Below, piece after piece: positions 1 to 51,005 of a DNA stretch of 51,005 bases; within the stretch, counting starts at the first letter, position 1, and each line of letters begins with the position of its first letter. Location: IMG/VR virus record IMGVR_UViG_3300045051_000371, positions 1 to 51,005 of that record; one strand, given 5' to 3'. The notes beneath the pieces were generated by a model. It worked only from the letters and a program-made list of their open reading frames with translations. It made no database searches and was not told the origin of the DNA. The translations under genes and the position numbers were made by a program. Origin of the DNA: a virus.

Positions 1-127
1 CACGTGGTCGGAGATTTGCCTGTCTACTATTCACGTGGTCTGGGGAGTCGTAGATCAAGATATTCGCTGATTCACGTGGTCTGGGGAATGATCTTAACAA
101 CTAGTTCATCGCTTGTCTACGATTCAC
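1..127. repeat. Terminal direct repeat, copy 1 (identical to 50879..51005)
   Basis: The first 127 nt recur exactly as the last 127 nt. This implies a circular, circularly permuted or terminally redundant genome. 127 is also a typical assembler k-mer overlap. Confidence 0.9.
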
Positions 128-133
128 ATGGTC
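28..133. promoter_or_regulatory. Array of direct 13-mers (G/T)ATTCAC(G/A)TGGTC; a fourth copy lies at 50875..50887
   Basis: Copies at 28-40, 69-81, 121-133 and 50875-50887 (which is -3..9 once the repeat is collapsed). Start-to-start spacings are 31, 41 and 52 bp. The core is palindromic CACGTG. The array lies in the spacer between two minus-strand genes. Confidence 0.5.
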
Positions 134-142
134 AGCAGTGGT

Positions 143-659: not shown

Positions 660-1578
660 GGTAAAAGTAGATGATAATTTAGTATCATCTCCTATTACCG
701 GCGAACAACATACTTTTCACAAGGCAGAGTCTCTCGTGGGACTTTCCTTATTCTCTCGGGAAGAGAACGAAACATTACTTTCATCCCCCACCCTACTCCC
801 GATAATGAATTTTCCTTGTTCTGTTGGATATTTTTTGAATGTTTACATTCCGGAATTTCAATCAGAATCGTATCCCTTCCATCCTAACAGCATCGACTTT
901 CACGATTTTAACAAGCATCAAAACCGGTGTTGTGGTTATGTTGCGAGAGAGTTTTCGTTACTCTCTCATTCGGGACGCTAAATCCCAACCCTACTTAATC
1001 ACCTATGAATTTCGTCATCTAGGGAAAGCCTCTAGGGTTGAACAATACTTACTCTCACAAAGAAGTTTACCGCCGGAAGTTTGGGGAGGCTAAGTCTTAG
1101 CTTACACGAGGGAGAATATAGACTTTCGTCCATTTTCGCACTTTTGGCTTTTAGTTCACCTTGCCCAGTTTTCCAACCGCTTTGTTTATTTAATTTTCGT
1201 TCAAGGGCATGGAAATTCTGTGACATTTTTCGGGGAGTCTTTCTAGGTTTTGCGCTGGCGATAATATCGCACTTCGGATTCAGTCAACGAACAAACTCGC
1301 GTTGGAAATTTTGTTCGCCTCGTGCAAGGGTAGTCGTCAGGAAACCTTAGTCTCTTTTCAACATCTCTAATGGCCGTTTGCGCTAGACCGTAGGACGGGA
1401 CTGGAAAGGGTAAGGAACTAGGTCGTAACCTAGGCTAGGCTTTCCAGCATGGCGGAAATGAGTGTGGATTAGTAGGGGATACTAGTCGCGTTAGGGTAGA
1501 AGATACCCGAAACACTCTCCGCGAAATGACAAAGGGCAGGCTTTGGACACTTGCCCTACTCGCCGCAATTGGCTTTGG
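660..1578. other. Long non-coding, hairpin-rich region (candidate structured RNA or leader)
   Basis: Only short, mutually overlapping ORFs with poor composition are present. There are many perfect stems, e.g. 945-952/960-967 and 1401-1408/1440-1447 enclosing 1418-1433. The motif CCCTACT occurs three times. Confidence 0.3.
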
Positions 1579-1611
1579 TCTGGCCTAGTAGGTAAACACC
1601 TACCGGCCAGA
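1579..1611 (-). terminator. 14-bp hairpin just downstream of the stop of CDS 1627..1974
   Basis: tctggcc-tagtaggt-aaac-acctac-c-ggccaga, 15 nt after the stop codon. There is no clear U tract. Confidence 0.35.
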
Positions 1612-1626
1612 ACGAAACCAACTAGG

Positions 1627-1974: not shown

Positions 1975-2425
1975 AGTATCTGGTGTAAGGTGGCCGGATC
2001 ACCCGGAGAAATCGCACCCGACAAAAACAAAATTGGCTGACATAACCCAACAAGCCAAGAGAAATCTTTAATTATTTTCAGTCCGCGCTCTGCCCAATAT
2101 TTGCCCGATTGTCTATGTCTCAACAATCAAGGTCTTTATTGTCCACACGTCAACATATTTCTATATAACTATCTAACGATATGTAGTATATCCATCTATA
2201 GTTATACATCTATCCCTCCCCGGAAGTGAGTGTTGTTTTAACACAGGTCACCTCAGACAATAGCCATATTTTGAAAAAAGTCAAACACTAATTAGAAAAT
2301 AGTGGAAGATATAAATAGAGAAAGTAGAGTAGACACTAGAAAAAATAGGCCCATAGCAACGAAAAAAGTCAATATATACTAAAAAGTAAAATGAAGTAAA
2401 ATTGGAATTAATATCCTCCCCCACC

Positions 2426-2441
2426 TGGCATGAGAATTGCT
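2426..2441 (+). promoter_or_regulatory. Sigma-54 type -24/-12 promoter upstream of the terminase-portal-scaffold operon
   Basis: cCTGGCATGagaaTTGCTa has GG and GC at the canonical spacing. It lies about 85 nt upstream of the small terminase ATG (2525), in an intergenic region. Confidence 0.7.
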
Positions 2442-2524
2442 AGAAGGATATCTATGAATTACTCGCAAGAAGCAGAAGATGCCTGCCGGGATAGTGATCT
2501 CTGGTGGGAAGTCTAGAAGAGCCT

Positions 2525-3073
2525 ATGGAAAACACACAAATTGCTCAGTTGGTTGCAGCCTATGATGCCAATGTGGAAGTTCACATTGATGATCTGGCTG
2601 AGCTATTTGGAATGACGACGGAGACGGTGAAGCAAGCATTATTCGCCGGCGGAAGTAAGCGTCTAATGTCGGAAGGAACCTTGTTGACCGGTTCTCGCAA
2701 GACATTCACTAACGCCATGGTTAAACGTGCTGTAGCCACAATTGAGAGTTGTCTTGATAGTTACGACGATAGTATCCGTTTCCGTGCAGCAGAACTCATT
2801 ATTAAAGTTGACACTGGTGCCATCGGCAAGCCCGAAGTGCGCAATGTTACCAACTTCATTCAGCAGAACCTTAACATTCTAGATGACACAATCCGACGAG
2901 GCTTGGAAGCAAGAGAAGCCGCGAGGAATGGAAATGTTCCTCGACCCGCACATGATGATGTGCATAATCGACGAGGACTTCCGGGAGGGGAGATTGCGTG
3001 CATACCCGTGGCAAGTGAGAGAACTGGAGTCGTTTGCGAGCCACTCCCTGAAGGCGAGTTCATCCCAGCCTAA
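2525..3073 (+). CDS. Putative terminase small subunit
   Basis: Position immediately upstream of the large terminase, with an HTH-like N-terminus (DDLAELFGMTTETVKQALF). I took the ATG at 2525 rather than the GTG at 2504. Confidence 0.5.
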   Translation: MENTQIAQLVAAYDANVEVHIDDLAELFGMTTETVKQALFAGGSKRLMSEGTLLTGSRKTFTNAMVKRAVATIESCLDSYDDSIRFRAAELIIKVDTGAIGKPEVRNVTNFIQQNLNILDDTIRRGLEAREAARNGNVPRPAHDDVHNRRGLPGGEIACIPVASERTGVVCEPLPEGEFIPA

Positions 3074-4421
3074 TCGCGTTAATCTACGTGCTGCGAATGG
3101 TGCAGGTAAGGATCAAATGATTATCGGTCCAGCGATAATCTGGTTCCTGATGCGCTATCCGCGGGCGATTGTAGTATTAACCTCATCCTCTAGCTCACAG
3201 CTCGACAACCAAACAGAACCTTCTTGTCGGAGGTGGGCCTACGCGTGGAATCGCTATGCAGATCAGTGTCAACTTCCAGGGCGATTCATTATCCGTGAAC
3301 GGAAGATTGTCTTCACGCAATCACACGGATCATGCACAATGTTTGCCACAGACAATGAAGGCAAAGCGGAAGGTTTCCATCCAGTCATTGCAGCAGGTGA
3401 GCAGCGGATGCTTATAGTAATCAACGAAGCAAAGAACGTCGATGACAAAATCTATGGTGCGATGTATCGTTGTCGTGGATATACTGACATGCTGGAAATC
3501 AGCTCACCAGAACAAATGTCCGGTGAGTTCTATAAGAATTCCCTCAAGAGTGGAATTCGACAAGTGAGGATTGATTGGAGACAATGTCCACACATCAGTG
3601 AAGAAGAATATAACAGTGCACTGGAAGACCACGGCGGAAACGCTCAAGATCCGTGGATGCTCTCCTCGTTCGAGGCAGAGTTTGCAGATCAGGTCAGCGA
3701 TGTAATTATTCCGGTGGATCTTGTTAGGACACTGATTCGGAATCCTCCAGCGTTGAAAGCGGGAGAAATGGTTAGTGCCGGGACAGACATTGCAGTAGTC
3801 AACGATGAAGCGGTAGTTACAATCTTCACCGGCAACCACTGGAAACAAACCATCCGTCGGCGAGGTTTCCCGTCGATGACATATCTTGAAGATTGGCTCG
3901 ATGAAATTTACAAAACTTTCAAACCAACACACATCCCAATCGACTATGACGGTATTGGTCGTGGTCCCGTCGACAACTTAGTCAATCGGCGTGGTTGGAC
4001 CCAAATCATTCCCGTCCAAAACGGATCCGCTGCGCATCGCAACCATCTCTATCTCAACCGCGGAACAGAACTCTATGCTGAAGCACGACGTCTTATTGAA
4101 GCCCGTGCAATTAAGATAGACGGCACAGACGAGAGAATGATCTCCCAACTCACAAGTCGAAGAGTAATCACCGGCAACAAAGGAAAGAAAATCCTTGAAT
4201 CAAAGAAACAAGCAAAGGCTAGAGGTATTCCTTCTCCTGACCGTGCTGATAGTCTTGTGCTGGCACTTAGTGTTCACAGCTACGAAAGTCTAGTTGTTGG
4301 ACGGCGGTCATTAGAGGAACAGGAAGAACGGATAACTATTAAATCCGACGCGGATCTACAGAAAATTCTCAGAGGACACTATCTAAAACCCAAACAAAAA
4401 TGGAAAGCACTGAACTTTTAG
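2928..4421 (+). CDS. terL: Terminase large subunit
   Basis: YPWQ near the N-terminus, Walker A-like AANGAGKD, Walker B-like MLIVINEA, and typical size and position. All candidate starts (2883-2958) overlap the preceding ORF. Confidence 0.8.
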   Translation: MEMFLDPHMMMCIIDEDFREGRLRAYPWQVRELESFASHSLKASSSQPNRVNLRAANGAGKDQMIIGPAIIWFLMRYPRAIVVLTSSSSSQLDNQTEPSCRRWAYAWNRYADQCQLPGRFIIRERKIVFTQSHGSCTMFATDNEGKAEGFHPVIAAGEQRMLIVINEAKNVDDKIYGAMYRCRGYTDMLEISSPEQMSGEFYKNSLKSGIRQVRIDWRQCPHISEEEYNSALEDHGGNAQDPWMLSSFEAEFADQVSDVIIPVDLVRTLIRNPPALKAGEMVSAGTDIAVVNDEAVVTIFTGNHWKQTIRRRGFPSMTYLEDWLDEIYKTFKPTHIPIDYDGIGRGPVDNLVNRRGWTQIIPVQNGSAAHRNHLYLNRGTELYAEARRLIEARAIKIDGTDERMISQLTSRRVITGNKGKKILESKKQAKARGIPSPDRADSLVLALSVHSYESLVVGRRSLEEQEERITIKSDADLQKILRGHYLKPKQKWKALNF

Positions 4422-6247
4422 AACAAGCCCTGGCAGAGATGCCAGTGGAATTGAAGGCTGCACCAGCAGAAGCCTTGACAATTGACTTCGCTGCACCGAA
4501 ACTCCATGCGCTGTTGACAGACTGGAAAACTGTCGAGGATCGTATTACAGAAGGACGAGCTAATCGTGTCAAGGACATTAACATTGAAGCACTGCGAAGC
4601 AGCAACCAGTTGCTCGCAGATGAAATGTATTTGCCGGTTAATGTTGTCGACACAAACATCCAGCGTGCTAAGCCGGCATATCTTCAGTATCTTATCGGTC
4701 CGGTGAATCTTGTATTCTTCACGGATCCCGAGGATCTTGGAGACTCTTTTGAGGATGTTGCGACAGCTTTCAATACGCTCATTAAATACACCAACTGGGA
4801 AGAACCACATCTCCGCGCGATTGACTGTGCAATCAGTCACTTCTGTGGAGCAGTTGAAGTGTTGTTTGACAAGAATGCTCCCGGCCGAGTTAGTGTGGAA
4901 TACGTGGCCCTCAACGATCTAATCATTCCACTTAACACTGAATACCTGCATCAGCAACTCTATGTGATGCGCCGCTACCGTTGGACAAACGTGGCTCTTA
5001 AGCGCAACGCTAAGGAGTTTGGCTTTGATCCGGCGACAACGGATAAGATTCTGGAAGAATTCAAGGAGCGTGTTGATACGGCAGATGTCTACAAGGTCTA
5101 TATCCGGGAACCAGAAGGACTCTATATTGCTTGGTGGAGTGATAAATGTGGCAAGGAGTGGTTGAGGGAACCAGTTCCGTTTGATATCGGACTTGGCGGT
5201 ATCGAGACACAACTTCCGATTATTCCATTGCTTGCAGACCTACTGGAAGATTCTAAAGTTCTTGCGGGACGTGGTGAATGTGAGAAGTCCAAGCACACTC
5301 AGACGTGTGTTAGTGGTCTAGAGAGCAGCCTCATTAACCAAACAATGAGGGCCTCTAACCCTGTCTTCTCGCCGGAGAACATGGATACGGCTGCTCAAGA
5401 GCCTATCGTGATGAAGGCTGGAACAATTTCCAAGACCGCATTGAAGATGCACAAGATTGATCCGCCGGATCCGAATCTCTTCAGTCTTGCAGAGCGTATT
5501 CGGTCGCAGAATCTTGATGAGCGGGGTCAGGTTAACTATGCGGTGAATAACAGAACGGACTCTCGCAAGACCGCAACAGAAGTCATGTCGGCCGACGCAC
5601 AAGCTGTTAAGCTTCAGAGTGTGTCGGTGCTGAATCTTGCAAACTATCTCCGAGGAGTTTACACCTATGCGTGGCGCATCGTTAAACACTACGCTTTGCG
5701 TAACGAGATCTTCTTGCTCGGAACAAGGGATGACTACGGGAACATCCACAATGATCTGTCGCGCATTGATCGCAACTTCCTGATCACACCCACTGGAGGT
5801 AGTGAGCAGGCGCGGATGAATGATGTTAAGTTGGGAATGGAGAAGATCTTCCCGTTGGTCCGTGGCACTGCGCTGGAGAAGGTGATGATTAGCGATTATC
5901 TCCGATATGCACTGCCGACGCTGGGAACTAAATATCAGCGGATCTACAAGACTAGCATCATCGCGCAGGATCTCACGCTACAGATCCAACAGGGAATCAT
6001 TGAGCGGATCATGCAAGGCACACCGGATCCTACAGGGAACATCATGGTCCCGTTCACGCAACAAGAACTACAGCAATTCCAACAAACATTCCAACAATAT
6101 CAGCAAATCTATGGAGTTCTCGGAGATACCAGAGGCAGCATTGGCCCAGTGGAGGGAATGCCAGGCGACCCAGATTCTGCTACAGAAACTGCAACCGGAG
6201 ATAGCGAAGCTATTCCAATGCAAATCGGATCCGAGCCTATTGCGTGA
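4400..6247 (+). CDS. Portal protein
   Basis: 615 aa, directly after terL and before the scaffold and capsid genes, with an acidic C-terminus. Confidence 0.7.
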   Translation: MESTELLEQALAEMPVELKAAPAEALTIDFAAPKLHALLTDWKTVEDRITEGRANRVKDINIEALRSSNQLLADEMYLPVNVVDTNIQRAKPAYLQYLIGPVNLVFFTDPEDLGDSFEDVATAFNTLIKYTNWEEPHLRAIDCAISHFCGAVEVLFDKNAPGRVSVEYVALNDLIIPLNTEYLHQQLYVMRRYRWTNVALKRNAKEFGFDPATTDKILEEFKERVDTADVYKVYIREPEGLYIAWWSDKCGKEWLREPVPFDIGLGGIETQLPIIPLLADLLEDSKVLAGRGECEKSKHTQTCVSGLESSLINQTMRASNPVFSPENMDTAAQEPIVMKAGTISKTALKMHKIDPPDPNLFSLAERIRSQNLDERGQVNYAVNNRTDSRKTATEVMSADAQAVKLQSVSVLNLANYLRGVYTYAWRIVKHYALRNEIFLLGTRDDYGNIHNDLSRIDRNFLITPTGGSEQARMNDVKLGMEKIFPLVRGTALEKVMISDYLRYALPTLGTKYQRIYKTSIIAQDLTLQIQQGIIERIMQGTPDPTGNIMVPFTQQELQQFQQTFQQYQQIYGVLGDTRGSIGPVEGMPGDPDSATETATGDSEAIPMQIGSEPIA

Positions 6248-6306
6248 TAAAGTGGTAGAGATTGAAATTTTGCAGAAAGTTAGAAACCTGATCAGAAAAG
6301 GAAAAT

Positions 6307-7377
6307 ATGAACTCAACTGAAGATACGAACATTATGGTTGATCTTAGCGGATTGGAAGAGGGTGAAGTGGTGCAAACAGCTGCACCGGTTACCACACCTG
6401 AGGCTCCTAAGGTAGAGGCTAAGGCTGAAGCTCCCAAGGCGGAGACTCCTGAAGCTCCGGCGGCTGAAGAGCCTGCTAATGTAGAAGTTAGCACTCCCGC
6501 TGAACCTGCGGCAGAAGCTACTCCCACAGACGACACAGAACCCCAGTTTACCGAAGCTGAACAGAAGGTTCTCAAGCAGATGTCTCCTTATGCCCGAGAC
6601 TTTGCCATTGCCCGAGTCAAGGAACTACAGAAGGAGCGGGCGGAGCGTATTAAATTGGTGGATGAAGTCAAGACCTTGCGCGAGCAAAAGGAAGCTGCGC
6701 GTAGCAATGTCTATGAATCCGAGAATGCCTATGTGCTAAATCCTGAATATCAGGAAGCAGCCATGGCAGTTAATAACTACAAGAAGGCCGCCCGCCACTA
6801 TGAGAACCAGAAGGCTCTAGCTATTGATGGCGATCCGGTTACATTCATCACGGGAGTTGATGAAGAAGGAGAACTCACATTCTCCGAACCAATGAAACCT
6901 ACCGGCAAGGTGATTGCTACTCTTGACCGGGAAACGCTGAAGATTGCCCGTGGATACGATAAAGCGCAGGGAGTAGTGTCTCGTATCTCAACTGAACACT
7001 CGACCAATCACGGGAAGTTCCGTGAACGAGTTAACGCTATGTCTTCCGCGATGATCCCTCAATGGGATGCCATCACGAAGGCTAATCCCGCGGCCGCAAC
7101 AAGCCACAAGGCCACCCTCGATACACTAACCAAGATGGGCTTTGATCCCCAAGTCTCGCCACTTGTCGATACCGTGGCCCGCCTGTATGCTGTTGCGGAG
7201 CTTCTCGGCACCAAACTGGAAGCTGCCAACAAGTCACTGGCGTCCGCGAAGAGTGTTAACTCTGTCGCCAAGGTAGTGGGTCCCACCAACGGACAGCATG
7301 TTGATGCCGGTGGACGAGTCGCTAAATCCCGGCCGGGATATGTTGAGATCACTCCCGAAGAAGAAGCACGCTATTAA
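6307..7377 (+). CDS. Scaffolding protein
   Basis: Lies between the portal and capsid genes. It has a Pro/Glu/Ala-rich acidic N-terminus and a predicted helical, charged body. Confidence 0.6.
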   Translation: MNSTEDTNIMVDLSGLEEGEVVQTAAPVTTPEAPKVEAKAEAPKAETPEAPAAEEPANVEVSTPAEPAAEATPTDDTEPQFTEAEQKVLKQMSPYARDFAIARVKELQKERAERIKLVDEVKTLREQKEAARSNVYESENAYVLNPEYQEAAMAVNNYKKAARHYENQKALAIDGDPVTFITGVDEEGELTFSEPMKPTGKVIATLDRETLKIARGYDKAQGVVSRISTEHSTNHGKFRERVNAMSSAMIPQWDAITKANPAAATSHKATLDTLTKMGFDPQVSPLVDTVARLYAVAELLGTKLEAANKSLASAKSVNSVAKVVGPTNGQHVDAGGRVAKSRPGYVEITPEEEARY

Positions 7378-7407: not shown

Positions 7408-7437
7408 AACGGGGCTGGATACTACTCCAGTCCCGTT
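7408..7437 (+). terminator. Hairpin after the scaffold gene
   Basis: aacggggctgga-tactac-tccagtcccgtt forms a 12-bp stem with one G-U pair, 30 nt after the stop. The T tract is weak. Confidence 0.5.
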
Positions 7438-7639
7438 CCCTTTACCATCGCTTGTAGCCCGTTCATAATCCATCGCTTCGGGCATTTGTTCCACGGCTGG
7501 TGGACTGGCCGTAGCGTTCCCGAGACGCGAGTGCGCGCAGCGAGCCGAAGGCGAGCGAGCCACGAGCGGCGAGGAATAGCACGCTATCCCGCTCCGGGCC
7601 TTCATATTCGCCGCGCAGCGGCGAGAACACTAATGAACT

Positions 7640-7655
7640 TGGCACGCATCTTGCT
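7640..7655 (+). promoter_or_regulatory. Sigma-54 type -24/-12 promoter upstream of the major capsid gene
   Basis: tTGGCACGcatcTTGCTt matches the extended consensus TGGCACG-N4-TTGCW exactly. It is intergenic, about 115 nt upstream of the capsid ATG (7768). Confidence 0.75.
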
Positions 7656-7767
7656 TACATAACATTGCCTCGCACACGCTGGAAGGGCATCCAGTTTTGG
7701 TTTGGTAGGTTATTCTAAACCTCCTAGTGAACAATGGTTGTTCATTAAACTAACTAAAACTCTACAC

Positions 7768-9039
7768 ATGCCACAGCCGTTTAACGCAATTGACGTGACG
7801 TATGGACATACGCCACAAGCCGAAGTGCAGTTTTCCAAACTGCCTTATATTCTCGCCAAGAAAGAACTGAAGTCCTGGAAGTCTACCCCGCTTGTTCGTA
7901 AACTTCTCGGTAAAGCCAAGTGGCAGCCGAATGAAGGTGCTACTGTGATGCGCACGGAGTATTCTACTCCTTCGCCCATTCAGCGGCAGATGCCGAAGCC
8001 GAACAAGATGTTCCAATCGGAGCCTAGCTTCGATGTTATTGGAACTCGTCGCTTCTACAATGAAGCCACTCCGGGCTGGAAGGGTTTCCACAGTGCTGAG
8101 TTCTACTGGCAGAACTCATTCGTTGAGAAGTTCCCTGATTCTATCAAGGATGCTTTCGACGACATCATGAATAAGGAGAAGATTTATGATGAAACCTATC
8201 TTCTGTCTGAACTCTACTTCCAAGCTCCGCGTGTTTATATCGCCGGGCAAGGATTTACCTCTGTTAAGCCGTCGTCTGCAATGGACCAGACGGTGAAGAC
8301 TGCTGAATGGGTTCAGGCTCAAGTTGTTGGCAAGGCTCGTGAAGCTCAGATCACTGACTTCATGCAGATTGCCTCTCAAATGCACGACAACGAGGGTATT
8401 CCTTTCTTCCAAGGTAAGGACTACGACGAAGGTTCTCCTGCTCCTGGCGGCACTTTTGCTCTTCTGTGCTCCACTGAGTTCATGCTTAATCTGACGTTTG
8501 ATCAGTATCTCAATCAGAATCGCATGCTCAATACTGATCTCGTTGGTGATGTCTGGAAGAAGACTCCCTTCGGGATGTATACGTGGAAGACTTGGCGTAA
8601 TCCGTTCCGTTTCCAGATTGATGGCACCACTGTTGCGCCGGAGATCACTGAGTCCGCCGCGGATGCGTTCAATCTCAACGAGACTGTTCCTAATCCGCTC
8701 TACACCAGCATGTTGAATGATGGCTCTCCTTACGAGGTTGCCATTATTCTCGGTCCTAACGCTGGTGATGCGCTGGAAGTTGGTCCGCCTCCTTCTGAGT
8801 TCACTAACTCCAGTGTCAGCTCCAAGATCACCGCTATCGACTGGAACGGTAAGATCAAGATGAATGATCTTTTTCTCGTTCCGACGGTTGGTGATGATGG
8901 TGTTGCCACTGTTGCCATCAATCCGATGGGCTTGCGTCGTCGTTATGAGTCTCTGCTCTCTGTTGGCTATGTTCCCCGCCAACGTCGTGCTGTGACTCTT
9001 TACTTCTACAAGCGCAAACTCGGTCCCGCCGTTGTGTAA
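7768..9039 (+). CDS. Major capsid protein
   Basis: 423 aa from the ATG at 7768, directly after the scaffold gene, with strongly biased codon usage. Function is assigned from position and size only. Confidence 0.65.
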   Translation: MPQPFNAIDVTYGHTPQAEVQFSKLPYILAKKELKSWKSTPLVRKLLGKAKWQPNEGATVMRTEYSTPSPIQRQMPKPNKMFQSEPSFDVIGTRRFYNEATPGWKGFHSAEFYWQNSFVEKFPDSIKDAFDDIMNKEKIYDETYLLSELYFQAPRVYIAGQGFTSVKPSSAMDQTVKTAEWVQAQVVGKAREAQITDFMQIASQMHDNEGIPFFQGKDYDEGSPAPGGTFALLCSTEFMLNLTFDQYLNQNRMLNTDLVGDVWKKTPFGMYTWKTWRNPFRFQIDGTTVAPEITESAADAFNLNETVPNPLYTSMLNDGSPYEVAIILGPNAGDALEVGPPPSEFTNSSVSSKITAIDWNGKIKMNDLFLVPTVGDDGVATVAINPMGLRRRYESLLSVGYVPRQRRAVTLYFYKRKLGPAVV

Positions 9040-17908: not shown

Positions 17909-18742
17909 ATGGCTTCTTATCATGAAGTTTCTCCAGCAGAACTTGCTGGCTATACGGTTTCTTCACTTCCTAAGGTTCTTGAGGCTTATACTAAAGCCAT
18001 CCAGCCTTATGATCGTGCGATGCTTGATGCAGCTAGGGTTATTGATCCGCAGAAAGCTCAACACGAATACGATCTCTCTGCTCGTTTCAGTCCGTTGTAT
18101 AACCAGCTGACCAACGATCTACAAGATCAAAACACTGAACTGGGTGCTCGTCGGGAACTTAACACACTCCGCGGAACCGGACGAGATCTTGTCAGTGAGG
18201 CAGTTAAACTTGATGAACTTGCCAATCCAGAGTTCTATGCCACACGTCGTCACTCTAGTGCTCTGTTTAATCAGCTCCTTGATTCTGTTAATCCTAACGG
18301 CCTGACTCCTACTGAGTCTGCTGAGATTGAACGTGGCCTTGCGCGCACTGGAGAACTTCCCGGATCACAGTCTTGGAAACATGCCCAGACTTTTGGCAAT
18401 GCGTTGAACGCTAAGAAGGATCGTCTTGCTTCACTGCTTTCCATGGCTCCTTCCATGCTAAGTTCCAAGACTCAAATTGATCCTTTTCAAGTTGGCACGG
18501 GACGTGCTGGTGTCAGTGCTGCGCCAGTGACCAATTTTAACCCTAGTGGCTATAACAATTCTTCTGCTATTGCAGGGATTGGTAATCAACTTGCAGGACA
18601 GATTGGTTCACAGGTTCAGGCTAATCAAGCTAATGCGCTGGCCCAACAGAACTCTAATCGCCAAAACGCCCTTGGTTGGGCTGGCATTGGTGTTAGCGGT
18701 TTGAATGTTCTCAACAAGACCTTCCCCGGTTACTCCGGCTAA
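17909..18742 (+). CDS. Internal virion protein candidate
   Basis: Position, plus a Gln/Asn/Gly-rich C-terminus. Confidence 0.4.
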   Translation: MASYHEVSPAELAGYTVSSLPKVLEAYTKAIQPYDRAMLDAARVIDPQKAQHEYDLSARFSPLYNQLTNDLQDQNTELGARRELNTLRGTGRDLVSEAVKLDELANPEFYATRRHSSALFNQLLDSVNPNGLTPTESAEIERGLARTGELPGSQSWKHAQTFGNALNAKKDRLASLLSMAPSMLSSKTQIDPFQVGTGRAGVSAAPVTNFNPSGYNNSSAIAGIGNQLAGQIGSQVQANQANALAQQNSNRQNALGWAGIGVSGLNVLNKTFPGYSG

Positions 18743-34964: not shown

Positions 34965-35602
34965 AGATCAAGATGCAGCGTAACTTCCATACCCTTCAGA
35001 CCTTTAACTGCAATGCCGGGATATTTTAGGATAAAGGTTTGCAACTTTGTATAGTCAGTCAGGCTGTGCAGTTTAATTGTCAATTCACCGATGTCACCTT
35101 CTCGCTTCATCCATTCAACAATCTGTAGTTGCCAGTTGAGTTCTGTCATCATCGGCGAGGCAACGGACAACACACGGTTTTTACGTTGAACCTTAACATC
35201 ACCGCCACGCTTGGCGAAGCTGTAGAGTTCTTCCCACTCAGAGTATTTTCCGGTAGGATCTAGATTCTCGACCAGATACGCAAGACCGTGACGGAAATAC
35301 TGAATAGCTGATGAAGCGGTTAGGCGTGTGGGAAGAATCTCATCTTCAACACCACGATCAATAATGTCTCTAACTTCAACCGCTGCCCGGTGACAGTAGT
35401 ATTCTCCACGAATACAAGTAAACCGGGACTTCTCAGGTTGTCGAATGTAACCGTCAGCTTCGATAATAATCTTGCGAAGACGCTCCTGGAGATCACAGAG
35501 CTGGTTGTCGATCTTCTCTTTTGTCGCTGGATCAGAGACTACCTTTCGACTCTTGATAAGAGCGGCTGCGGTTGATTGGATTTCTTTGTAAGCAGGAATC
35601 AT
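34961..35602 (-). CDS. Hypothetical protein immediately downstream of the sigma-54 activator
   Basis: ORF track, 213 aa, no recognisable motif. Confidence 0.5.
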   Translation of the reverse strand: MIPAYKEIQSTAAALIKSRKVVSDPATKEKIDNQLCDLQERLRKIIIEADGYIRQPEKSRFTCIRGEYYCHRAAVEVRDIIDRGVEDEILPTRLTASSAIQYFRHGLAYLVENLDPTGKYSEWEELYSFAKRGGDVKVQRKNRVLSVASPMMTELNWQLQIVEWMKREGDIGELTIKLHSLTDYTKLQTFILKYPGIAVKGLKGMEVTLHLDL

Positions 35603-35620
35603 GCCAGTGGGGGAAGAGTA

Positions 35621-36556
35621 TTAAAGTGCATCAAGTTTCATGCGTTCACCAAGTGCAATTAGTGAGCGGACGTTGTGGCGAAGATCGCCACGTGTAAGTA
35701 GTGGTGGCAATGGATACTCGAAGCCAGGATAAAGCTCTGACCAAATAAGTTTTGCATCAGCAGGTCGTTCAATCAGATGCTTGATACGGAACTCAAATAT
35801 ACTAATACGAGCATGGAAGTCTTCACGTGTTGGAGTTCCTTGCGACGCACAAACAATGCGACAGTTGGAGATTTCATCAACACCGCCAATGCGTCTAATC
35901 CAACAGCGGCCATCGGAGTCTGGTTGTAGCGCCCGAAGCATCTTGGCTTGGAGATAATCAGGAAGGTCAAACACTTCATCAAGGAACAAAGTTCCACCGA
36001 ATGCTTGTTGGAATACACCATCTTTGCGGTTGTCTGCGCCTGTAAATGCACCTTTCTCGTAACCGAACAATTCAGTTTCCAACAGTGTCGCTGGAATCGC
36101 TGCACAGTTAAGTGCAACAAAAGGTCCTTGTCGCCAAGGTCCATGCAAGGCGCGAGCAAGCAGTTCCTTGCCAACACCCGTAGGTCCACGAAGTAGAACA
36201 GTGTGATCAGTGTAAGCCAGCTTGCGGATGCAACGACAGGTGTCCAGTGTATCAGGGTCTTGTGTGTAAAAAGATTCCAGTCCATTGTAATACTCAGTAT
36301 GCTTAGGTGGCATCCGGCACACTACACGACCTGCATCAGCAACTAAAGGCTCAGCCAAAGATTCTGCTGCCTCGATACGACCTTTAAGATCTTGATACCG
36401 GAACTTAACATTGTTGGGAGTCTTTGCACGTTTGGGATCTACGATTATATGCTTCCATCGCTCCTCAGCCTTTGCATTACGATCCATTGCCCGCATAAAG
36501 ATCTCGACATTCTTAGGATCATGGATGTCGGTAATTTCAATAGTTGAATCACTCAT
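35621..36556 (-). CDS. Sigma-54-dependent transcriptional activator (bEBP AAA+ domain) without an HTH domain
   Basis: LLRGPTGVGKELLARALH, FVALNCAAIP, ETELFGYEKGAFTGA, GGTLFLDEV, QAKMLRALQ and HNVRSLI, collinear with the NtrC central domain. The protein ends right after sensor II. Confidence 0.85.
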   Translation of the reverse strand: MSDSTIEITDIHDPKNVEIFMRAMDRNAKAEERWKHIIVDPKRAKTPNNVKFRYQDLKGRIEAAESLAEPLVADAGRVVCRMPPKHTEYYNGLESFYTQDPDTLDTCRCIRKLAYTDHTVLLRGPTGVGKELLARALHGPWRQGPFVALNCAAIPATLLETELFGYEKGAFTGADNRKDGVFQQAFGGTLFLDEVFDLPDYLQAKMLRALQPDSDGRCWIRRIGGVDEISNCRIVCASQGTPTREDFHARISIFEFRIKHLIERPADAKLIWSELYPGFEYPLPPLLTRGDLRHNVRSLIALGERMKLDAL

Positions 36557-36789
36557 ATGATTAGCGTTACATGAATATTGCCAGGAACTAAATTACAACA
36601 ATCGCTTTGGTTACAAATTTCATTACGCCAATTTACCTTCCATGTAAGATTACCCGGTAAAGGGTAGTGAGACGTGGCACAGGAGATAAGTTCTTCATCA
36701 GTCCAGTTTTTGCTTACACAAACTTCGATTGTAAACTTGGGACTCGTTATAACATCAAATGAACTTTTTAAAGCTGTATCACTCATCAC
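36553..36789 (-). CDS. Small hypothetical protein
   Basis: ORF track, overlap-coupled to the activator gene. Confidence 0.45.
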   Translation of the reverse strand: MMSDTALKSSFDVITSPKFTIEVCVSKNWTDEELISCATSHYPLPGNLTWKVNWRNEICNQSDCCNLVPGNIHVTLII

Positions 36790-37855
36790 TTGTATCTCCA
36801 GTTACGTAATCCTCAGGGTTGACTTTCTCAATATAAGGATCATTGATTACGAGACTATCATTTGTCCAGACCATATCAGAGTAGGTTTCCGTCGAAGTGT
36901 GTCTATCGCAGCGAAGTTTCTGCGAGACCTTCTTGGCTACTTTAACTTCACGGGTGCCGTTGAAGGCAAGGGATTCTTGGTAGGTATCAGAACAGGAAGT
37001 CAGTCGGTGTGCTCGACCATAGGCTTGGACAACCATCTTGGAAGAGTATGGAAGTCCCAGCTTTGAGCGACGAGGACGAGTGCCATCTTCATCATGCAGC
37101 GAGAGTGCAACACCACCACTGGCCAATGTAAAGATTGCATAATCTGCTTGTCCAGCTTGGAATGCACGTATCTGTTTCCAACGGGTTTCCTTATCCACTG
37201 CACCAAGCAAGCTCTTATCAATCGCACTGAGATCTTGATTGAGCCTATTACTATACGACTCAATCAACTCATCCAACAACCCATCCTCAATGAACTGATT
37301 AACTTCTTCCTCGCTGAGCTTCTTGCGGATCTGTTCTTCAGCTACCTTACGTTTACGTTCTTGTGCTCCATATCCACCCCAGATGATTGCGATCTTGGCT
37401 GGGTTGACGCCGTGCTTGTGGACAAGGTTGTTGACTACCTCTACGACAGATCGCTTGAAGCACAGCCCAATGACACTGGCATAGCCTTCTGCAACTTCGT
37501 TGTATGCTTCTTGTGCAATGATGACAGTCTTCAGTCGTTCAGCTTCTTCACGCAGCTTGCCATCTTCAACAAGCTTCCGGATGACCGGATGATGATACTC
37601 GTCAATCCTAGCACACTCAGCCATGTAGCGATTGAATGCTTGGTTATAACAGATATGATCTTCTTCGGATGCGAACTCAATGAGCCGCACCCGGTTGTAT
37701 GATTTGAATGCGGATGGAATCTTAGGCATCCGGTAGTAGCGGTTGCCTAGTAGCCCCACCATGCGACGGATGGATACTTCGTTGTAGTCTAAATGATCTG
37801 CGGGATAACAGATCTGTGAGACCACAGAGTGCCAATTATCAGGAGTGACGATCAT
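36779..37855 (-). CDS. SF2 helicase, C-terminal (RecA2) half
   Basis: Motif IV-like VIGLCFKRS, motif V FTLASGGVALSL, motif VI VQAYGRAHRL. I took the ATG at 37855. Confidence 0.6.
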   Translation of the reverse strand: MIVTPDNWHSVVSQICYPADHLDYNEVSIRRMVGLLGNRYYRMPKIPSAFKSYNRVRLIEFASEEDHICYNQAFNRYMAECARIDEYHHPVIRKLVEDGKLREEAERLKTVIIAQEAYNEVAEGYASVIGLCFKRSVVEVVNNLVHKHGVNPAKIAIIWGGYGAQERKRKVAEEQIRKKLSEEEVNQFIEDGLLDELIESYSNRLNQDLSAIDKSLLGAVDKETRWKQIRAFQAGQADYAIFTLASGGVALSLHDEDGTRPRRSKLGLPYSSKMVVQAYGRAHRLTSCSDTYQESLAFNGTREVKVAKKVSQKLRCDRHTSTETYSDMVWTNDSLVINDPYIEKVNPEDYVTGDTSDE

Positions 37856-38039
37856 TTGGTGACAAACTGTGAAGTCTATTACTAAACTCAAGAAGTTTCG
37901 CTTCAAGCTCACGTTGGCGCAAGCTATAAATTTCTCGGGAAAGAATAATATTAGTTTGCGCAAGACTGCGATTATCTTGCAAGGCTCGTTGAAGCTCGTC
38001 CTTCAACTGATGCAACAGATAGTTTTCTTCAGGTGTCAT
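37839..38039 (-). CDS. Small coiled-coil protein
   Basis: ORF track. Lies between the two helicase halves. Confidence 0.4.
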   Translation of the reverse strand: MTPEENYLLHQLKDELQRALQDNRSLAQTNIILSREIYSLRQRELEAKLLEFSNRLHSLSPNDRHS

Positions 38040-38317: not shown

Positions 38318-38510
38318 GGGATGTCTTGGCTACTTGTGGGTATAGTGTCTTGGGATACTGTTGTTCTTCATTGTTCTGCACGTCCTTGGTGAAGATAAAG
38401 ATGGCTGGAGGATAGGCTTTACAATCTCCCATCATTTCAGTCTTCTTGATTCCACGCTCTTCAAAGAACGGACAGTTACCGCAGGTTGCATTGGGGTTTC
38501 TCATTAGCAA
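38250..38510 (-). CDS. Small Cys-rich protein
   Basis: CGNCPFF...GDCKAY...ACGEH. Lies between the two helicase halves. Confidence 0.4.
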   Translation of the reverse strand: MLMRNPNATCGNCPFFEERGIKKTEMMGDCKAYPPAIFIFTKDVQNNEEQQYPKTLYPQVAKTSRACGEHPDFYGQQDTIVQDREG

Positions 38511-39352
38511 ATCTTCTTTCGGATTTCAAGGATCATTTCTTCTGTGACTTCATACTTCAACATAGCAAGCATCAACTCCGTGGCACGGGTAGCCACTGTA
38601 GCAGAGGTGAGTAAGAGACGAGGTTTGCGGGTGGTCATAACATAAGCAGCGAGGACTTTAGTAATCTTGGCATTGGGGTTACCAACTGTGTGAGACTCGT
38701 CACACACAAGCAGAGCCGGCTGTCGTCCGGGTCGCCAAGAGATAACCTCTGTTTCAATACCCTCTAAACTCTGGACTTCCCACTTGAGATACTCCTTGAT
38801 TCCCGCAGAGCTGCGAAGATTCTCATAGTTCACCACCAGTAGATCTTCACGCTTGATGCCGAACAATTCCTCCGCTACGTAACGTGTCTGTAGAACTGCA
38901 TTGTCCTTCGTCAGCCACATAACCGGAACAGTCATATGGAATTCGGACAGTGTGCTCTTTAGCCATGGGAGCATCTCATGAATTGCTGCGCTGACGGCGA
39001 ATGTCTTACCATTGCCAGCAACACTAGACATAACGAAGGACATCTCATTGTTATGCTGGAACTGCTGGATGATGTTGAGTGCACAGGTGTTATGCTGTGC
39101 GTAATACTTGACCTTTGGATTCTTGGCGAGGATGTCCAGCTTACGCTCTGAGCGAGTGATGACTGTCTTCTCGCTGGTGGGAGTAGCTGCTTGTTCGTGG
39201 TCGAGTTGAGCTGCTATGATGTCGGGGAAGGTGACAGTGGAGGCGGGAACAGTGCGGTCAGCGTCGGATGGTGTGATGCCAAGTCGCTGCTTGATGTCGT
39301 AAAGGGATACGCTGAGCTTCTTGGCTTTAATGAATGCGATGGCGGAGATCAT
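38504..39352 (-). CDS. SF2 (DExH) helicase, N-terminal (RecA1) half
   Basis: Motif I AGNGKT, motif II LVCDESH, motif III LLLTSAT. It ends with TAA. Confidence 0.6.
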   Translation of the reverse strand: MISAIAFIKAKKLSVSLYDIKQRLGITPSDADRTVPASTVTFPDIIAAQLDHEQAATPTSEKTVITRSERKLDILAKNPKVKYYAQHNTCALNIIQQFQHNNEMSFVMSSVAGNGKTFAVSAAIHEMLPWLKSTLSEFHMTVPVMWLTKDNAVLQTRYVAEELFGIKREDLLVVNYENLRSSAGIKEYLKWEVQSLEGIETEVISWRPGRQPALLVCDESHTVGNPNAKITKVLAAYVMTTRKPRLLLTSATVATRATELMLAMLKYEVTEEMILEIRKKIC

Positions 39353-40708: not shown

Positions 40709-40783
40709 TATGCTCTTGATTGTAGGGAGTAGTTGTTCTCCCCACAAGAAAGAGCACAAGGTGTTACCCCTGTGCCTTGATTG

Positions 40784-41413
40784 TTACGCCGCCTTCGGCT
40801 TACGGCGACGGGACTCAATGTCCGCAACGAGCGAAGTCTTCTGCACCTTGAGAACGCGCAACGCAGTGCGCTCTTCATCGGACAGAACATCCTTCACAGT
40901 ATATTCCATACCGGTGGCAGGATTGATGTCACCATTGAAGACAGGCTGCAACTTGGGCTCAAAGCCAGCGAGTTCCTTCTCGATAGCCTCAAGCGCCTCA
41001 GTCATATCCTTAATAGACGCACCCGCATCATCACGCAGCCACTTCTCCAGGGCCTTGGCAGCGATCTCTTCATCCAATCCTTCCTTCTCAGTAGTAGCAG
41101 CGCGAGTGCATTTGTTACCAGCCATGCGGAAGTCAGCATCCAGCACGCTGAGAACATTAGCCTCACCGCCATAGACCTGAATGTAATCCGCCAGCTTCCA
41201 GCCATTGCGATCAATCTGGACGGTCAACGGATAAACTTCAACTTCCTTGCGAACGATGTTGCCGTGAGCATCAAGCTGCGGCTGACCACTGGCATCGAGG
41301 ACATTGACAGGCTCCTTCACAGCACGCAGTGCCTTGGCGAGAACGATCTTGATTTCACGGGGACCAGACTGAGTGTCAAGGTTGAACGAACGAACGAGCT
41401 TATTGGTTTCCAT
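40784..41413 (-). CDS. Hypothetical protein with a basic C-terminal tail
   Basis: 209 aa, preceded by a 60-nt A-rich leader, ending RRRKPKAA. Confidence 0.55.
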   Translation of the reverse strand: METNKLVRSFNLDTQSGPREIKIVLAKALRAVKEPVNVLDASGQPQLDAHGNIVRKEVEVYPLTVQIDRNGWKLADYIQVYGGEANVLSVLDADFRMAGNKCTRAATTEKEGLDEEIAAKALEKWLRDDAGASIKDMTEALEAIEKELAGFEPKLQPVFNGDINPATGMEYTVKDVLSDEERTALRVLKVQKTSLVADIESRRRKPKAA

Positions 41414-41473: not shown

Positions 41474-41836
41474 CTATCCAAGGTCGGGAAGATACACTAC
41501 ATTACCGGGAAGATCGTTGGTCAATTCGAGCTTCGATGGATCTATACCAGCAAGTCCCGTGCCAACTGGTGTAAGAAGAAAGCACGTATCTGGATTAGCA
41601 CGTGCGTAATATTTGAATGCACGCAATGATTCATTGATCACATCAGGATCTAGTGAGCATAGCCGGGAGTCTTTCGTCGGAATGGCATAGCTATTACCCT
41701 GTCTTCCATTGCCTATTCCTTTCACCGCACCGAAGTGTGTTCGTGCAAAGAGCGCAGCACCTGCTCCGTGATAGCCGGCAAGGTTAGAACCAAAGACGAA
41801 GACGTAACGTGACGGGAGTGATTTGGTGAGGATCAT
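41474..41836 (-). CDS. Conserved phage protein with FVFGSNLAGxHGAGAA / SYAIPTK motifs (Rossmann-like; function unknown)
   Basis: I recall this motif pair from a widespread phage and bacterial family. I cannot name the family with certainty. Confidence 0.5.
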   Translation of the reverse strand: MILTKSLPSRYVFVFGSNLAGYHGAGAALFARTHFGAVKGIGNGRQGNSYAIPTKDSRLCSLDPDVINESLRAFKYYARANPDTCFLLTPVGTGLAGIDPSKLELTNDLPGNVVYLPDLG

Positions 41837-48903: not shown

Positions 48904-49499
48904 GTTAAACGCATTGATTCAGTGGTGTAATCAGGATAATCACGACGTTCATATTCATCGTAACATGATTGAATATCGTGACGAATGTTTTCTAGTGGAT
49001 CCGTATCGTTAAAGTTTCTTTCAATTTCTCGCTTAATGTCTTCAAGAAACATGTTACGAGACATTGTAATGAAAGTTTGTCGACATTCTTCTTGCTCTTC
49101 CCAAAGCAGAAACATTTGGTCGATTTCTTCAGGGATAGAAAGGATGTCTTCAGCTTCAATAGCTTCTTTTTCAAGCTCCCGCTTCAGCGCCTTGCGTAAG
49201 CGACGGGAAGACATCTTCTTGAATCGGTGATGATACTCACCGAAGTTCTCCATCACACTGAGCCCCGTGATATCTTTGCCGCACAGACGGATAGGACGAC
49301 GGGTTTGTGGAGAATTCACTGGACGATAGAAAGCGGTAGCCTTATAGCAAGGCTCATGCCAACCGAAGTAGTGTTCGCCACTTCGGGAAACTATAGTGTG
49401 CGTAGGCTTGCCGATGCTGGATACGAGTTTACATGCTTCGCTAGAGTGAAACCAGAAGATGGAATCACGGCGGGGGCAAAGCTGTGCGAGAGTTTTCAT
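48900..49499 (-). CDS. Hypothetical protein
   Basis: ORF track, 199 aa. Confidence 0.5.
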   Translation of the reverse strand: MKTLAQLCPRRDSIFWFHSSEACKLVSSIGKPTHTIVSRSGEHYFGWHEPCYKATAFYRPVNSPQTRRPIRLCGKDITGLSVMENFGEYHHRFKKMSSRRLRKALKRELEKEAIEAEDILSIPEEIDQMFLLWEEQEECRQTFITMSRNMFLEDIKREIERNFNDTDPLENIRHDIQSCYDEYERRDYPDYTTESMRLT

Positions 49500-50798: not shown

Positions 50799-50809
50799 AA
50801 CCAAATGCA

Positions 50810-50842
50810 GAATCCCCACACCTTACTGGGGTGTAGGGATTC
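50810..50842 (-). other. 13-bp hairpin 12 nt upstream of the ATG at 50798
   Basis: gaatccccacacc / ggtgtagggattc with one mismatch. It could be a leader structure or an attenuator. Confidence 0.35.
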
Positions 50843-50878
50843 TGTGTTAATTATGTGTGGTTAGGAGATTCGGAGATT

Positions 50879-51005
50879 CACGTGGTCGGAGATTTGCCTG
50901 TCTACTATTCACGTGGTCTGGGGAGTCGTAGATCAAGATATTCGCTGATTCACGTGGTCTGGGGAATGATCTTAACAACTAGTTCATCGCTTGTCTACGA
51001 TTCAC
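50879..51005. repeat. Terminal direct repeat, copy 2 (identical to 1..127)
   Basis: Exact 127-nt identity with the start of the window. Confidence 0.9.

Follow-up and report, generated by a model that had tools for sequence, protein, structure and literature searches.

The stretch of DNA analysed here, referred to as the window, is a viral contig of 51,005 nt. A direct repeat of 127 nt is present at both of its ends, and the window is therefore considered to be a complete, circularly assembled genome of approximately 50.9 kb. The long open reading frames (ORFs) form two arms that diverge from a gene-poor region of about 2.4 kb (1-2500). The plus-strand arm (2525-25482) includes the large terminase gene, and the minus-strand arm (from about 50980 down to 26572) carries replication genes, namely pieces of a family A DNA polymerase, DUF3987 and AAA_24 proteins and a split helicase. 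A holin, a dUTPase and a Tad2-like protein are also encoded, as found by a pooled Pfam scan of 53 further ORFs of both arms, a result that applies to the set and not to individual ORFs. Neither a sigma factor nor an RNA polymerase was detected in this pooled scan or in targeted scans. Most of the ORFs in the window have no known function, and scanning its full length for Rfam families and tRNAs gave no match. Megablast with 10 kb of the window gave no near-identical match among GenBank phages, and no match was obtained in a first scan of IMG/VR with a terminase query. The genome matches that were obtained are distant, with 30-33% identity, and consist of contigs from metagenome-assembled genomes (MAGs) binned as Alphaproteobacteria, Terracidiphilus and 'Proteobacteria', together with a contig from one Azospirillaceae strain.

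The first genes of the plus-strand arm make up a module that is here called late operon 1. Its first long ORF (2525..3073, +) encodes 182 amino acids and is conserved and syntenic in related phages; it is a putative small terminase by position, with no match in Pfam or PHROGs. The following gene (2883..4421, +) encodes the large terminase (TerL), identified using tblastn through its similarity to the terminases of Akkermansia phages (31% identity, E=3e-37). Close homologs are 423-474 amino acids long, and the true TerL start is therefore probably located downstream of 2883. The remainder of the operon (4400..7377, +) consists of a 615-aa ORF and a 356-aa ORF, which by position would be the portal and the scaffold or protease, respectively. 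Their order is kept in the related contigs L001-L005, L014 and L015, and neither has a family match in Pfam or PHROGs. The preliminary description had named this module a terminase-portal-scaffold operon. Homology bears out the large terminase, and the labels small terminase, portal and scaffold are positional, as are all of the other downstream gene identities. After the last gene, a GC-rich hairpin (GGGGCTGGA-TACTAC-TCCAGTCCC) followed by a T-rich tail can be read from the sequence at 7410..7436 (+). This hairpin is likely the terminator that closes the operon; a scan for terminator-like structures covering 7410-7436 did not list it.

Upstream of this operon lies the 16-mer TGGCATGAGAATTGCT (2426..2441, +), which is contained in the segment CCTGGCATGAGAATTGCTA (2424-2442) and is a candidate core of a sigma-54-type promoter with a predicted transcription start at about 2451-2453. 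The -24 GG is located at 2427-2428 and the -12 GC at 2439-2440, with the canonical spacing of 10 nt. The 16-mer deviates from the consensus TGGCAC-N5-TTGCW only at position 6, where it has T in place of C, a frequently seen substitution. This consensus was reportedly given by Barrios et al. in 1999. The motif is intergenic, with a divergently oriented 115-aa ORF (1627-1974, -) on one side and, on the other, the plus-strand module, whose orientation it shares. The distance to the ATG at 2525, the start of the 182-aa ORF that precedes the large terminase, is 84 nt, and the distance to a small ORF in between is 13 nt. The element TGGCAT-N5-TTGC with canonical GG/GC spacing, described previously from the letters alone, is thus present exactly at 2426-2441, and the earlier estimate of about 85 nt to the putative small-terminase ATG agrees with the measured distance. 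The same description had seen no convincing -35/-10 pair in the two large intergenic gaps of the plus strand. The sigma-70 scan gave the same outcome, with only weak 9/12 matches near 2426 and 7640 (2271-2300 and 7441-7469); such matches occur in the window at chance rate (17 against 11.5 +/- 3.9 expected).

The motif also stands out statistically. Strict matches to TGGCAY-N5-TTGCW on both strands of the window number four (2426+, 7640+, 41549- and 49346-), where 0.18 +/- 0.44 are expected from 100 dinucleotide shuffles, none of which reached four. When two mismatches are allowed, 40 matches are found and 29 are expected. A weight matrix was trained on 17 intergenic sites from related contigs only, with the window itself excluded. 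Among the approximately 102,000 positions of the window, this matrix ranks the 7640 site first (21.8 bits) and the 2426 site second (20.5 bits); the top scores of 30 first-order Markov simulations had a mean of 13.3 bits and a maximum of 19.5. The seven top matches of the matrix are all co-oriented with the local genes. As far as can be judged from sequence, the 2426 motif has every feature that would be expected of a sigma-54 promoter.

The second of these sites, TGGCACGCATCTTGCT (7640..7655, +), has a perfect consensus and heads what would be late operon 2, so that both large plus-strand gaps carry a -24/-12 element, as had been proposed. Orthologous sites are present in L002, L003, L014, L015 and L010, located 93-142 nt upstream of the ATG of a gene of approximately 420 codons, the putative capsid gene. 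In the window, this gene (7768..9039, +) encodes 423 amino acids from the ATG at 7768, and its relatives are 417-426 amino acids long. It is a putative major capsid gene based on position and size; the protein has no match in Pfam or PHROGs, and its AlphaFold model (pLDDT 43.7) is too poor for use. The leader of the putative capsid gene contains a conserved 5' UTR hairpin, GCTGGA-AGGGCA-TCCAGT (7678..7695, +), with six predicted pairs, three of which show compensatory changes.

Related phage contigs were found via homologs of the large terminase. The TerL identity to the window is 72% for L001, 53% for L002, 43% for L003, L004 and L005, 39% for L014, 36% for L015 and 33% for L010, a contig from an alphaproteobacterial MAG bin. 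The common gene order of these relatives is a small ORF, TerL, a gene for about 600 amino acids, a gene for about 350 amino acids, a gap and a gene for about 420 amino acids. In six lineages, a GG-N10-GC motif (TGGYAY, GCT) precedes the first late ORF: TGGCATGAGAAGTGCT in L001, TGGCACGCCACCAGCT in L002, TGGCACCGTTCCTGCT in L003, TGGCACAGTATATGCT in L014, TGGCATGAAAGTAGCT in L015 and TGGAATAGAACTTGCT in L010. A second motif before the putative capsid gene is found in five of the six. When the upstream regions are aligned globally, some blocks survive further upstream, but the alignment is lost near the motif owing to spacing differences of more than 100 nt. The flanks diverge and the motif stays, indicating that the motif itself is what is conserved. 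In the matrix, TGG-A-Y and (T)GCT, set at a fixed distance, are the only informative positions of the family sites, and this pattern is the known signature of sigma-54 promoters.

Between the candidate promoter and the ATG at 2525 lies a conserved micro-ORF of 20 amino acids, MNYSQEAEDACRDSDLWWEV (2454..2516, +). Its ATG is located 14 nt past the C of the -12 GC, and six lineages show distances of 13-17 nt. In the encoded peptide, L001-L003 retain the SD[LI]W motif, with SDLM in L014 and YDSW in L015. Transcription from sigma-54 promoters usually starts 11-13 nt past the C of the -12 GC. Applied to these distances, this rule predicts only 0-5 nt of leader for the first late mRNA; in the window, counted from 2440, the micro-ORF would likewise be translated from a leaderless or nearly leaderless transcript. 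In three lineages, the interval separating the -12 element from the start codon of the micro-ORF contains purine runs resembling a Shine-Dalgarno (SD) sequence; the run in the window is AGAAGGA. These runs would be absent from a transcript that starts at about +1, which is odd unless transcripts from further upstream also exist; they sit uneasily with the model and count against it. In the window and in L001, the ATG of TGGCATG shares the reading frame of the micro-ORF, and the motif was therefore also considered as the start of a coding ORF; this reading was rejected because L002, L003 and L014 have TGGCAC at this position.

The minus-strand arm encodes a sigma-54 activator, or bacterial enhancer-binding protein (bEBP), of 311 amino acids (35621..36556, -), which consists of about 95 N-terminal residues of unassigned fold and an AAA+ core. 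A six-frame search of the window for GAFTGA gave a single match, located in this ORF, which had escaped the preliminary description. The protein matches PF00158 with 144.7 bits (E=2.8e-42, cut-off 20.2) and contains a Walker A motif (GPTGVGKE), the GAFTGA loop (ELFGYEKGAFTGA), a Walker B motif (LFLDEV) and a sensor-II-like motif (HNVRSL). Among six phage homologs, no variation is seen in Walker A, GAFTGA, Walker B or the sensor-II arginine. The best sequence match in the PDB is the FleQ/NtrC AAA+ domain (E=1e-35), with FlrC, NtrC1 and PspF also found, and a Foldseek search with the predicted fold retrieved NtrC4, FleQ, FlrC and PspF (E=1e-15 to 1e-16 for NtrC4 and FleQ). In Pfam, the protein has no HTH_8 domain, and a single helix ends it about 14 residues past the sensor-II arginine R297. 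No receiver or other sensory domain (REC, GAF, PAS, V4R) was found, and residues 1-95 have no Pfam match. Residues 1-55 are modeled as disordered (pLDDT <50), and the model of the N-terminal region is unreliable because the underlying alignment contains six sequences only. This region could bind DNA or a regulator. The cellular homologs carry REC, AAA-lid and HTH_8 domains, with PF02954 in all cellular matches, and the activator and its five close homologs (299-311 amino acids) have neither a receiver nor HTH_8. By its predicted domain content, the protein is a bona fide PF00158 sigma-54 activator minus the DNA-binding and sensory modules. The neighboring 394-aa ORF was considered as a phage sigma-54 and rejected, as it carries a QAYGRAHR motif and resembles the C-terminal half of an SNF2-type helicase that is split in two.

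The activator gene is embedded in a syntenic block shared with L008, L009, L017 and L019, consisting of the helicase halves, the activator, an ORF of about 210 amino acids, a nuclease-like ORF, AAA_24 and the polymerase. L008 and L009 share their source samples with L001 and L002. In PHROGs, the family that matches the activator carries the label 'unknown function'. A profile of the phage-type activator detects many homologs of 250-310 amino acids that likewise end at sensor II, and in IMG/VR, 28 viral contigs encode homologs of the activator. In 376 kb of these contigs, the matrix finds 22 matches of at least 14 bits, all of which are on the strand of the activator gene, and several of the contigs have 3-5 intergenic sites each. 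The GenBank phage records matching the activator are, among those inspected, of the cellular type, and many have ordinary cellular regulator annotations; L006, the sole GenBank match examined in detail, is bacterial metabolic DNA. The gut-virome 'Bacteriophage sp.' scaffold MT836026 was considered as a second phage with activator and motif and was rejected, since it is bacterial metabolic DNA with a classical activator carrying HTH_8.

Other candidate sites are present elsewhere in the genome. The perfect-consensus site TGGCACGGGACTTGCT (41549..41564, -) lies inside the 3' part of ORF 41474-41836 and is probably the promoter of a 209-aa gene (40784-41413), whose start it precedes by 136 nt and which is followed by a terminator-like hairpin (40753-40776). 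In L009, where another gene has been inserted between the two, synonymous changes have eroded the old embedded site, and an intergenic site (L009:1956) has newly arisen directly before the ortholog of the 209-aa gene. This combination of decay and replacement argues that the 41549 site is functional. A candidate internal late promoter, TGGCACGGGACGTGCT (18493..18508, +; 20.4 bits), is located in coding sequence; it differs from the site ending at 41564 by one base of the 16-mer, and the four 5' flanking bases are identical. The remaining strict-consensus match (49346..49361, -) encodes W-H-E-P-C of a conserved protein, and the ortholog in L008 has WHQPC at the position of WHEPC; this match may be a coding coincidence resulting from protein constraint. 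Two of the four strict sites (41549 and 49346) are thus in coding sequence, which counts against the model. In addition, the -24/-12-like motif TGGCATGATTCCTGCT (35591..35606, -; 16.4 bits) is located immediately after the activator gene and in this lineage overlaps the ATG of the next ORF. It does not fit a simple promoter role and also counts against the model. A site just past the activator gene recurs in many of the relatives in IMG/VR.

Upstream activator sequences are typically located about 80-200 nt upstream of sigma-54 promoters, with or without IHF, and are not obligatory where the activator has no DNA-binding domain. No shared k-mer of at least 8 nt was found upstream of the four strict sites, and no IHF consensus is present near 2426 or 7640. 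The A+T content of the 200 nt upstream is 68% versus 38% at the two late promoters. A repeat, GAAAAAAGTCAA, occurs at 2273 and 2361 and is private to this genome, and the 2426 and 35591 sites share an extra C-rich extension, TCCCCCAC(C)TGGCATGA. The absence of a shared element and of IHF sites in these searches, together with the differing composition, fits activation from solution.

The components found here can be compared with known bacterial systems. The systems glnAp2/NtrC, pspA/PspF and Pu/XylR have the same 10-nt GG/GC spacing, TGGCAY and TTGCT elements and AAA+ activator motifs. Unlike these bacterial systems, the components in the window are virus-borne, the sites are located at the heads of morphogenesis operons, the activator has neither sensory nor DNA-binding domains, and no upstream sites were found. 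Natural activators without a DNA-binding domain are Helicobacter FlgR, Chlamydia CtcC and Rhodobacter FleT, which activate from solution. The engineered AAA+ domain of DctD (DctD250) is reported to be promiscuous and active from solution (PMC3844500). Like FlgR, CtcC, FleT and DctD250, the phage protein has an AAA+ core without HTH_8 and would be expected to act on the sigma-54 holoenzyme from solution, whichever sigma-54 promoter is occupied. A phosphorylatable receiver is retained in FlgR and CtcC, whereas the phage protein has an unrelated N-terminal region of about 95 residues, mostly predicted to be disordered, and is virus-encoded.

The sigma-54 holoenzyme forms a stable closed complex at the -24/-12 elements, and its opening needs ATP hydrolysis by an activator hexamer via GAFTGA. 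Reviews of the subject include PMC7057263 and PMC5095919. Based on the above, the reading preferred here, with a probability of about 0.78, is that host sigma-54 RNA polymerase reads the late promoters at 2426 and 7640 and that the phage activator opens them from solution. The promoter heading the late operon, as suggested in the preliminary description, is supported at the sequence level by enrichment, orientation, positional conservation and a phage-encoded activator. Early in infection, the minus strand would be transcribed from sigma-70-type promoters near the genome junction, where a candidate (TAGACA-17-TG-TAAGAT) is located at 50997-50969 amid four ATTCACGTGGTC repeats. This transcription would yield the activator along with the replication proteins, while host sigma-54 polymerase would wait as a closed complex at 2426 and 7640. 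The activator, once accumulated, would open these complexes without an enhancer. Transcription from 2426, with a start at about 2451-2453, would then cover the micro-ORF, the putative small terminase, the large terminase, the putative portal and the 356-aa protein and end at 7410-7436, and the twin promoter at 7640 would drive the capsid and tail operon. With no receiver and no DNA-binding domain, we infer that the activator is constitutively active and works from solution, and late transcription would be a simple function of its concentration. The reader would thus be host sigma-54, implying that rpoN is present in the host, and the trigger would be the activator of the phage and not that of the host, with no need for an enhancer.

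Several other explanations were considered. The first, which is unlikely, is that the 2426 motif is a real sigma-54 promoter driven by host enhancer-binding proteins and that the phage activator is otherwise employed, for example, at the sigma-54 regulons of the host during takeover. Pseudomonas phage YuA is reported to use a sigma-54-like promoter (PMC10914365), and neither YuA nor any other Pseudomonas phage is among the tblastn matches of the activator, indicating that phages can use host activators. An activator without a DNA-binding domain would also fire the sigma-54 promoters of the host, comparable to what is described for DctD250. However, motifs and activator gene are found together across the lineage, and the late promoters have no conserved upstream host-activator site in common. 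The roles of the phage activator in late-gene expression and at host regulons are not mutually exclusive.

Distinctly less probable is that sigma-54 binds the site without promoter function, with the closed complex acting as a roadblock, a repressor or a sigma-54 sink. Many non-productive or intragenic sites are bound by sigma-54 (PMC4591121), with intragenic sites in E. coli as a precedent, and in the window, a start codon is overlapped by the 35591 motif, while the 49346 and 18493 sites are in coding sequence. The 2426 and 7640 sites are, however, intergenic and correctly oriented, and in up to seven lineages a conserved short distance separates them from the first ORF of their operon. There is no evident alternative promoter, and a phage activator makes sense only if some sites fire. 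It is more improbable still that the resemblance to sigma-54 sites is superficial and that the motif is recognized by a phage-specific factor or another host sigma factor. Such a factor could be among the many ORFs of no known function, and the C-rich extension common to 2426 and 35591 would also agree with it, but in its conserved positions and its exact spacing the motif corresponds to sigma-54 sites. At equal stringency, the matrix also finds two gene-preceding sites on the bacterial contig L006, which carries a classical activator, and the phage has no recognizable transcription protein other than the sigma-54 activator, whose GAFTGA loop is intact. A functionless chance match is scarcely credible, for although a degenerate consensus is readily matched by 16-mers with one mismatch and the looser search gave 40 matches against 29 expected, the strict matches far exceed expectation (four against 0.18), the independent matrix ranks the site second, and its position is conserved in six other lineages.

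Among phages, YuA is the nearest precedent to the reading of sigma-54 promoters opened by a phage activator. It is likewise a tailed phage with a promoter of the host sigma-54 type, and the leader of its major head gene (5' UTR) also contains a conserved RNA element. YuA is reported to have one sigma-54-like promoter among many others, whereas here, both late operon heads carry one and the activator is phage-encoded. Late transcription in phage T4 (gp55, gp33 and the gp45 sliding clamp; PMC2988020) is similar in that a phage-encoded enhancer-like activator is needed for the opening of late promoters by the core polymerase of the host. In T4, however, the sigma factor is replaced and the replication clamp is used, whereas the phage described here would keep the sigma factor of the host and supply only the ATPase. 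No description of a phage-encoded sigma-54 activator controlling late genes was found in the literature that was searched. The timing of late transcription in phages is known to be achieved through a phage RNA polymerase, the replacement or appropriation of sigma factors, antitermination, and classical activators of sigma-70 promoters. To our knowledge, sigma-54 is the only bacterial sigma factor with promoters that are completely silent without an ATPase, which would make these promoters an ideal leak-free late switch. This phage lineage probably switches its late genes on in a manner that is undescribed for phages.

A wider reading extends the preferred one to a widespread uncultured clade of tailed phages, to which the window, six or more related metagenomic lineages and most of the approximately 28 IMG/VR contigs would belong. 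These phages would have a self-contained sigma-54 late switch, in which the minimal activator builds up during the replication phase and fires, from solution, the perfect-consensus -24/-12 promoters of the packaging operon, the capsid operon and a few internal genes, the first transcript is leaderless or nearly leaderless and begins with the SD[LI]W micro-protein, and the sigma-54 regulon of the host is opened as well. This extended reading is tentative, and we give it slightly less than an even chance.

If correct, a new strategy would be added to the temporal controls used by phages, and rpoN would be a determinant of host range and resistance for the clade. The activator would also fire every sigma-54 promoter of the host, so that infection would force open the whole host regulon and collateral activation of host sigma-54 regulons would accompany it. 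In addition, a natural minimal activator and strong orthogonal promoters would become available for synthetic biology. The activator and the motif together would also provide an annotation handle for operon starts in a large group of viral contigs that are otherwise unannotatable.

A conserved micro-ORF (window 2454-2516) is present directly 3' of the sigma-54-type promoter at 2426-2441 (+), which heads the first late operon. In the window and in three contigs of related phages (L001-L003), it encodes 13-26 aa with the motif SD[LI]W. It runs up to or into the beginning of the following gene (in L001 and L002 the overlap is ATGA or TAATG), and this arrangement suggests that the two reading frames are translationally coupled.

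Upstream of the same promoter, at a distance of 160-330 nt, three non-coding blocks within window 2110-2262 are conserved in L001-L003. The first block reads GTCTAYGTCTCAACAATC, the second, TATAACTATNTAACGATAT, corresponds to the left arm of an inverted repeat (19 nt, 2164-2206), and the third consists of CCCNCCCC...TTACAC...CCTCAGACAA. These blocks were not found upstream of the promoter of the putative capsid gene (7640 site, +), and they could serve in packaging (as a pac/cos site) or in regulation of the divergent 115-aa gene. In addition, a perfect 12-nt direct repeat, GAAAAAAGTCAA, is present at 2273-2284 and 2361-2372, with the copies 88 nt apart and about 170 and about 80 nt upstream of the predicted transcription start, respectively. 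The repeat is located in an A-rich insert that is absent from the relatives and is private to this genome.

The putative capsid gene (ATG at 7768) lacks a Shine-Dalgarno sequence and is preceded by a conserved and structured leader of about 110 nt (window 7656-7767). A hairpin at 7678-7695 (GCTGGA-AGGGCA-TCCAGT) is also observed in three relatives (L002, L003 and L014), with compensatory changes in the stem and a conserved AAGGCA loop, and is followed on its 3' side by a second stem, AGGTT/AACCT, at about 7707-7723. The leader sequence ACATTGCCTCGC is shared even with L015, a relative with only 36% identity in the large terminase. This structured leader may function either as an operator of translation or as an element that affects stability.

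Other motifs resembling -24/-12 elements have been observed elsewhere in the window. One of these, TGGCATGATTCCTGCT at 35591-35606 (-), is located directly 3' of the phage-encoded sigma-54 activator gene (35621-36556, -) and has the extension TCCCCCAC(C)TGGCATGA in common with the 2426 site. In the lineage of the window, translation of the next ORF (conserved M-x-x-A...) begins at the ATG within this motif. In the more distant IMG/VR relatives L019, L022 and L023, the motif precedes the start codon of that ORF by about 17 nt. A near-identical 20-mer, agtTGGCACGGGAC(G/T)TGCTggt, is present at 18493-18508 (+) and 41549-41564 (-) in two unrelated coding sequences, where it encodes VGTG(R/L)AG; such a recurrence is difficult to account for other than by selection on the DNA sequence itself. 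Two canonical -24/-12 promoters are also present on the GenBank virome scaffold MT836026.1, labelled 'Bacteriophage sp.', which was rejected as bacterial metabolic DNA; it carries fumarase, proline racemase, transporters and a classical sigma-54 activator. This scaffold is a contaminant of a phage collection, and similar 'Bacteriophage sp.' virome scaffolds in GenBank appear to be of the same kind.

The helicase is apparently divided over two ORFs, 36779-37963 (-) and 38504-39352 (-), separated by a 93-aa ORF. A DEAD/ResIII-like match was obtained for the N-terminal half, and the motif QAYGRAHR is present in the C-terminal one; the split is also conserved in L009 and L019.

No convincing ORF was found in the approximately 900 nt of window 700-1620, and no Rfam match was obtained there. 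This stretch is partly GC-rich with many local stems (e.g., 1380-1460 and 1540-1620), and it could correspond either to a decayed gene or to a non-coding RNA of an uncharacterised type. A large imperfect palindrome at about 300-660 contains TTATGA/TCATAA-type repeats as well as G-rich and C-rich arms (GGGGGGTG ... CACCCCCC), which surround a core of very high A+T content (about 460-530); it could function as a replication origin or as some other cis site. The 127-nt terminal direct repeat (window 1-135 and 50879-51005) indicates a circular assembly. A sigma-70-like candidate early promoter at 50997-50969 (-) is flanked by four copies of ATTCACGTGGTC, one of which reads CACATGGTC, located partly inside the longer TGTCTACNATTCACRTGGTC; these repeats look like operators or iterons. 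Between this candidate promoter and the first early gene, a hairpin with a 15-bp stem (CAGAATCCCTACACC ... GGTGTGGGGATTCTG; 50808-50844, -) could serve as an attenuator or protein-binding site.
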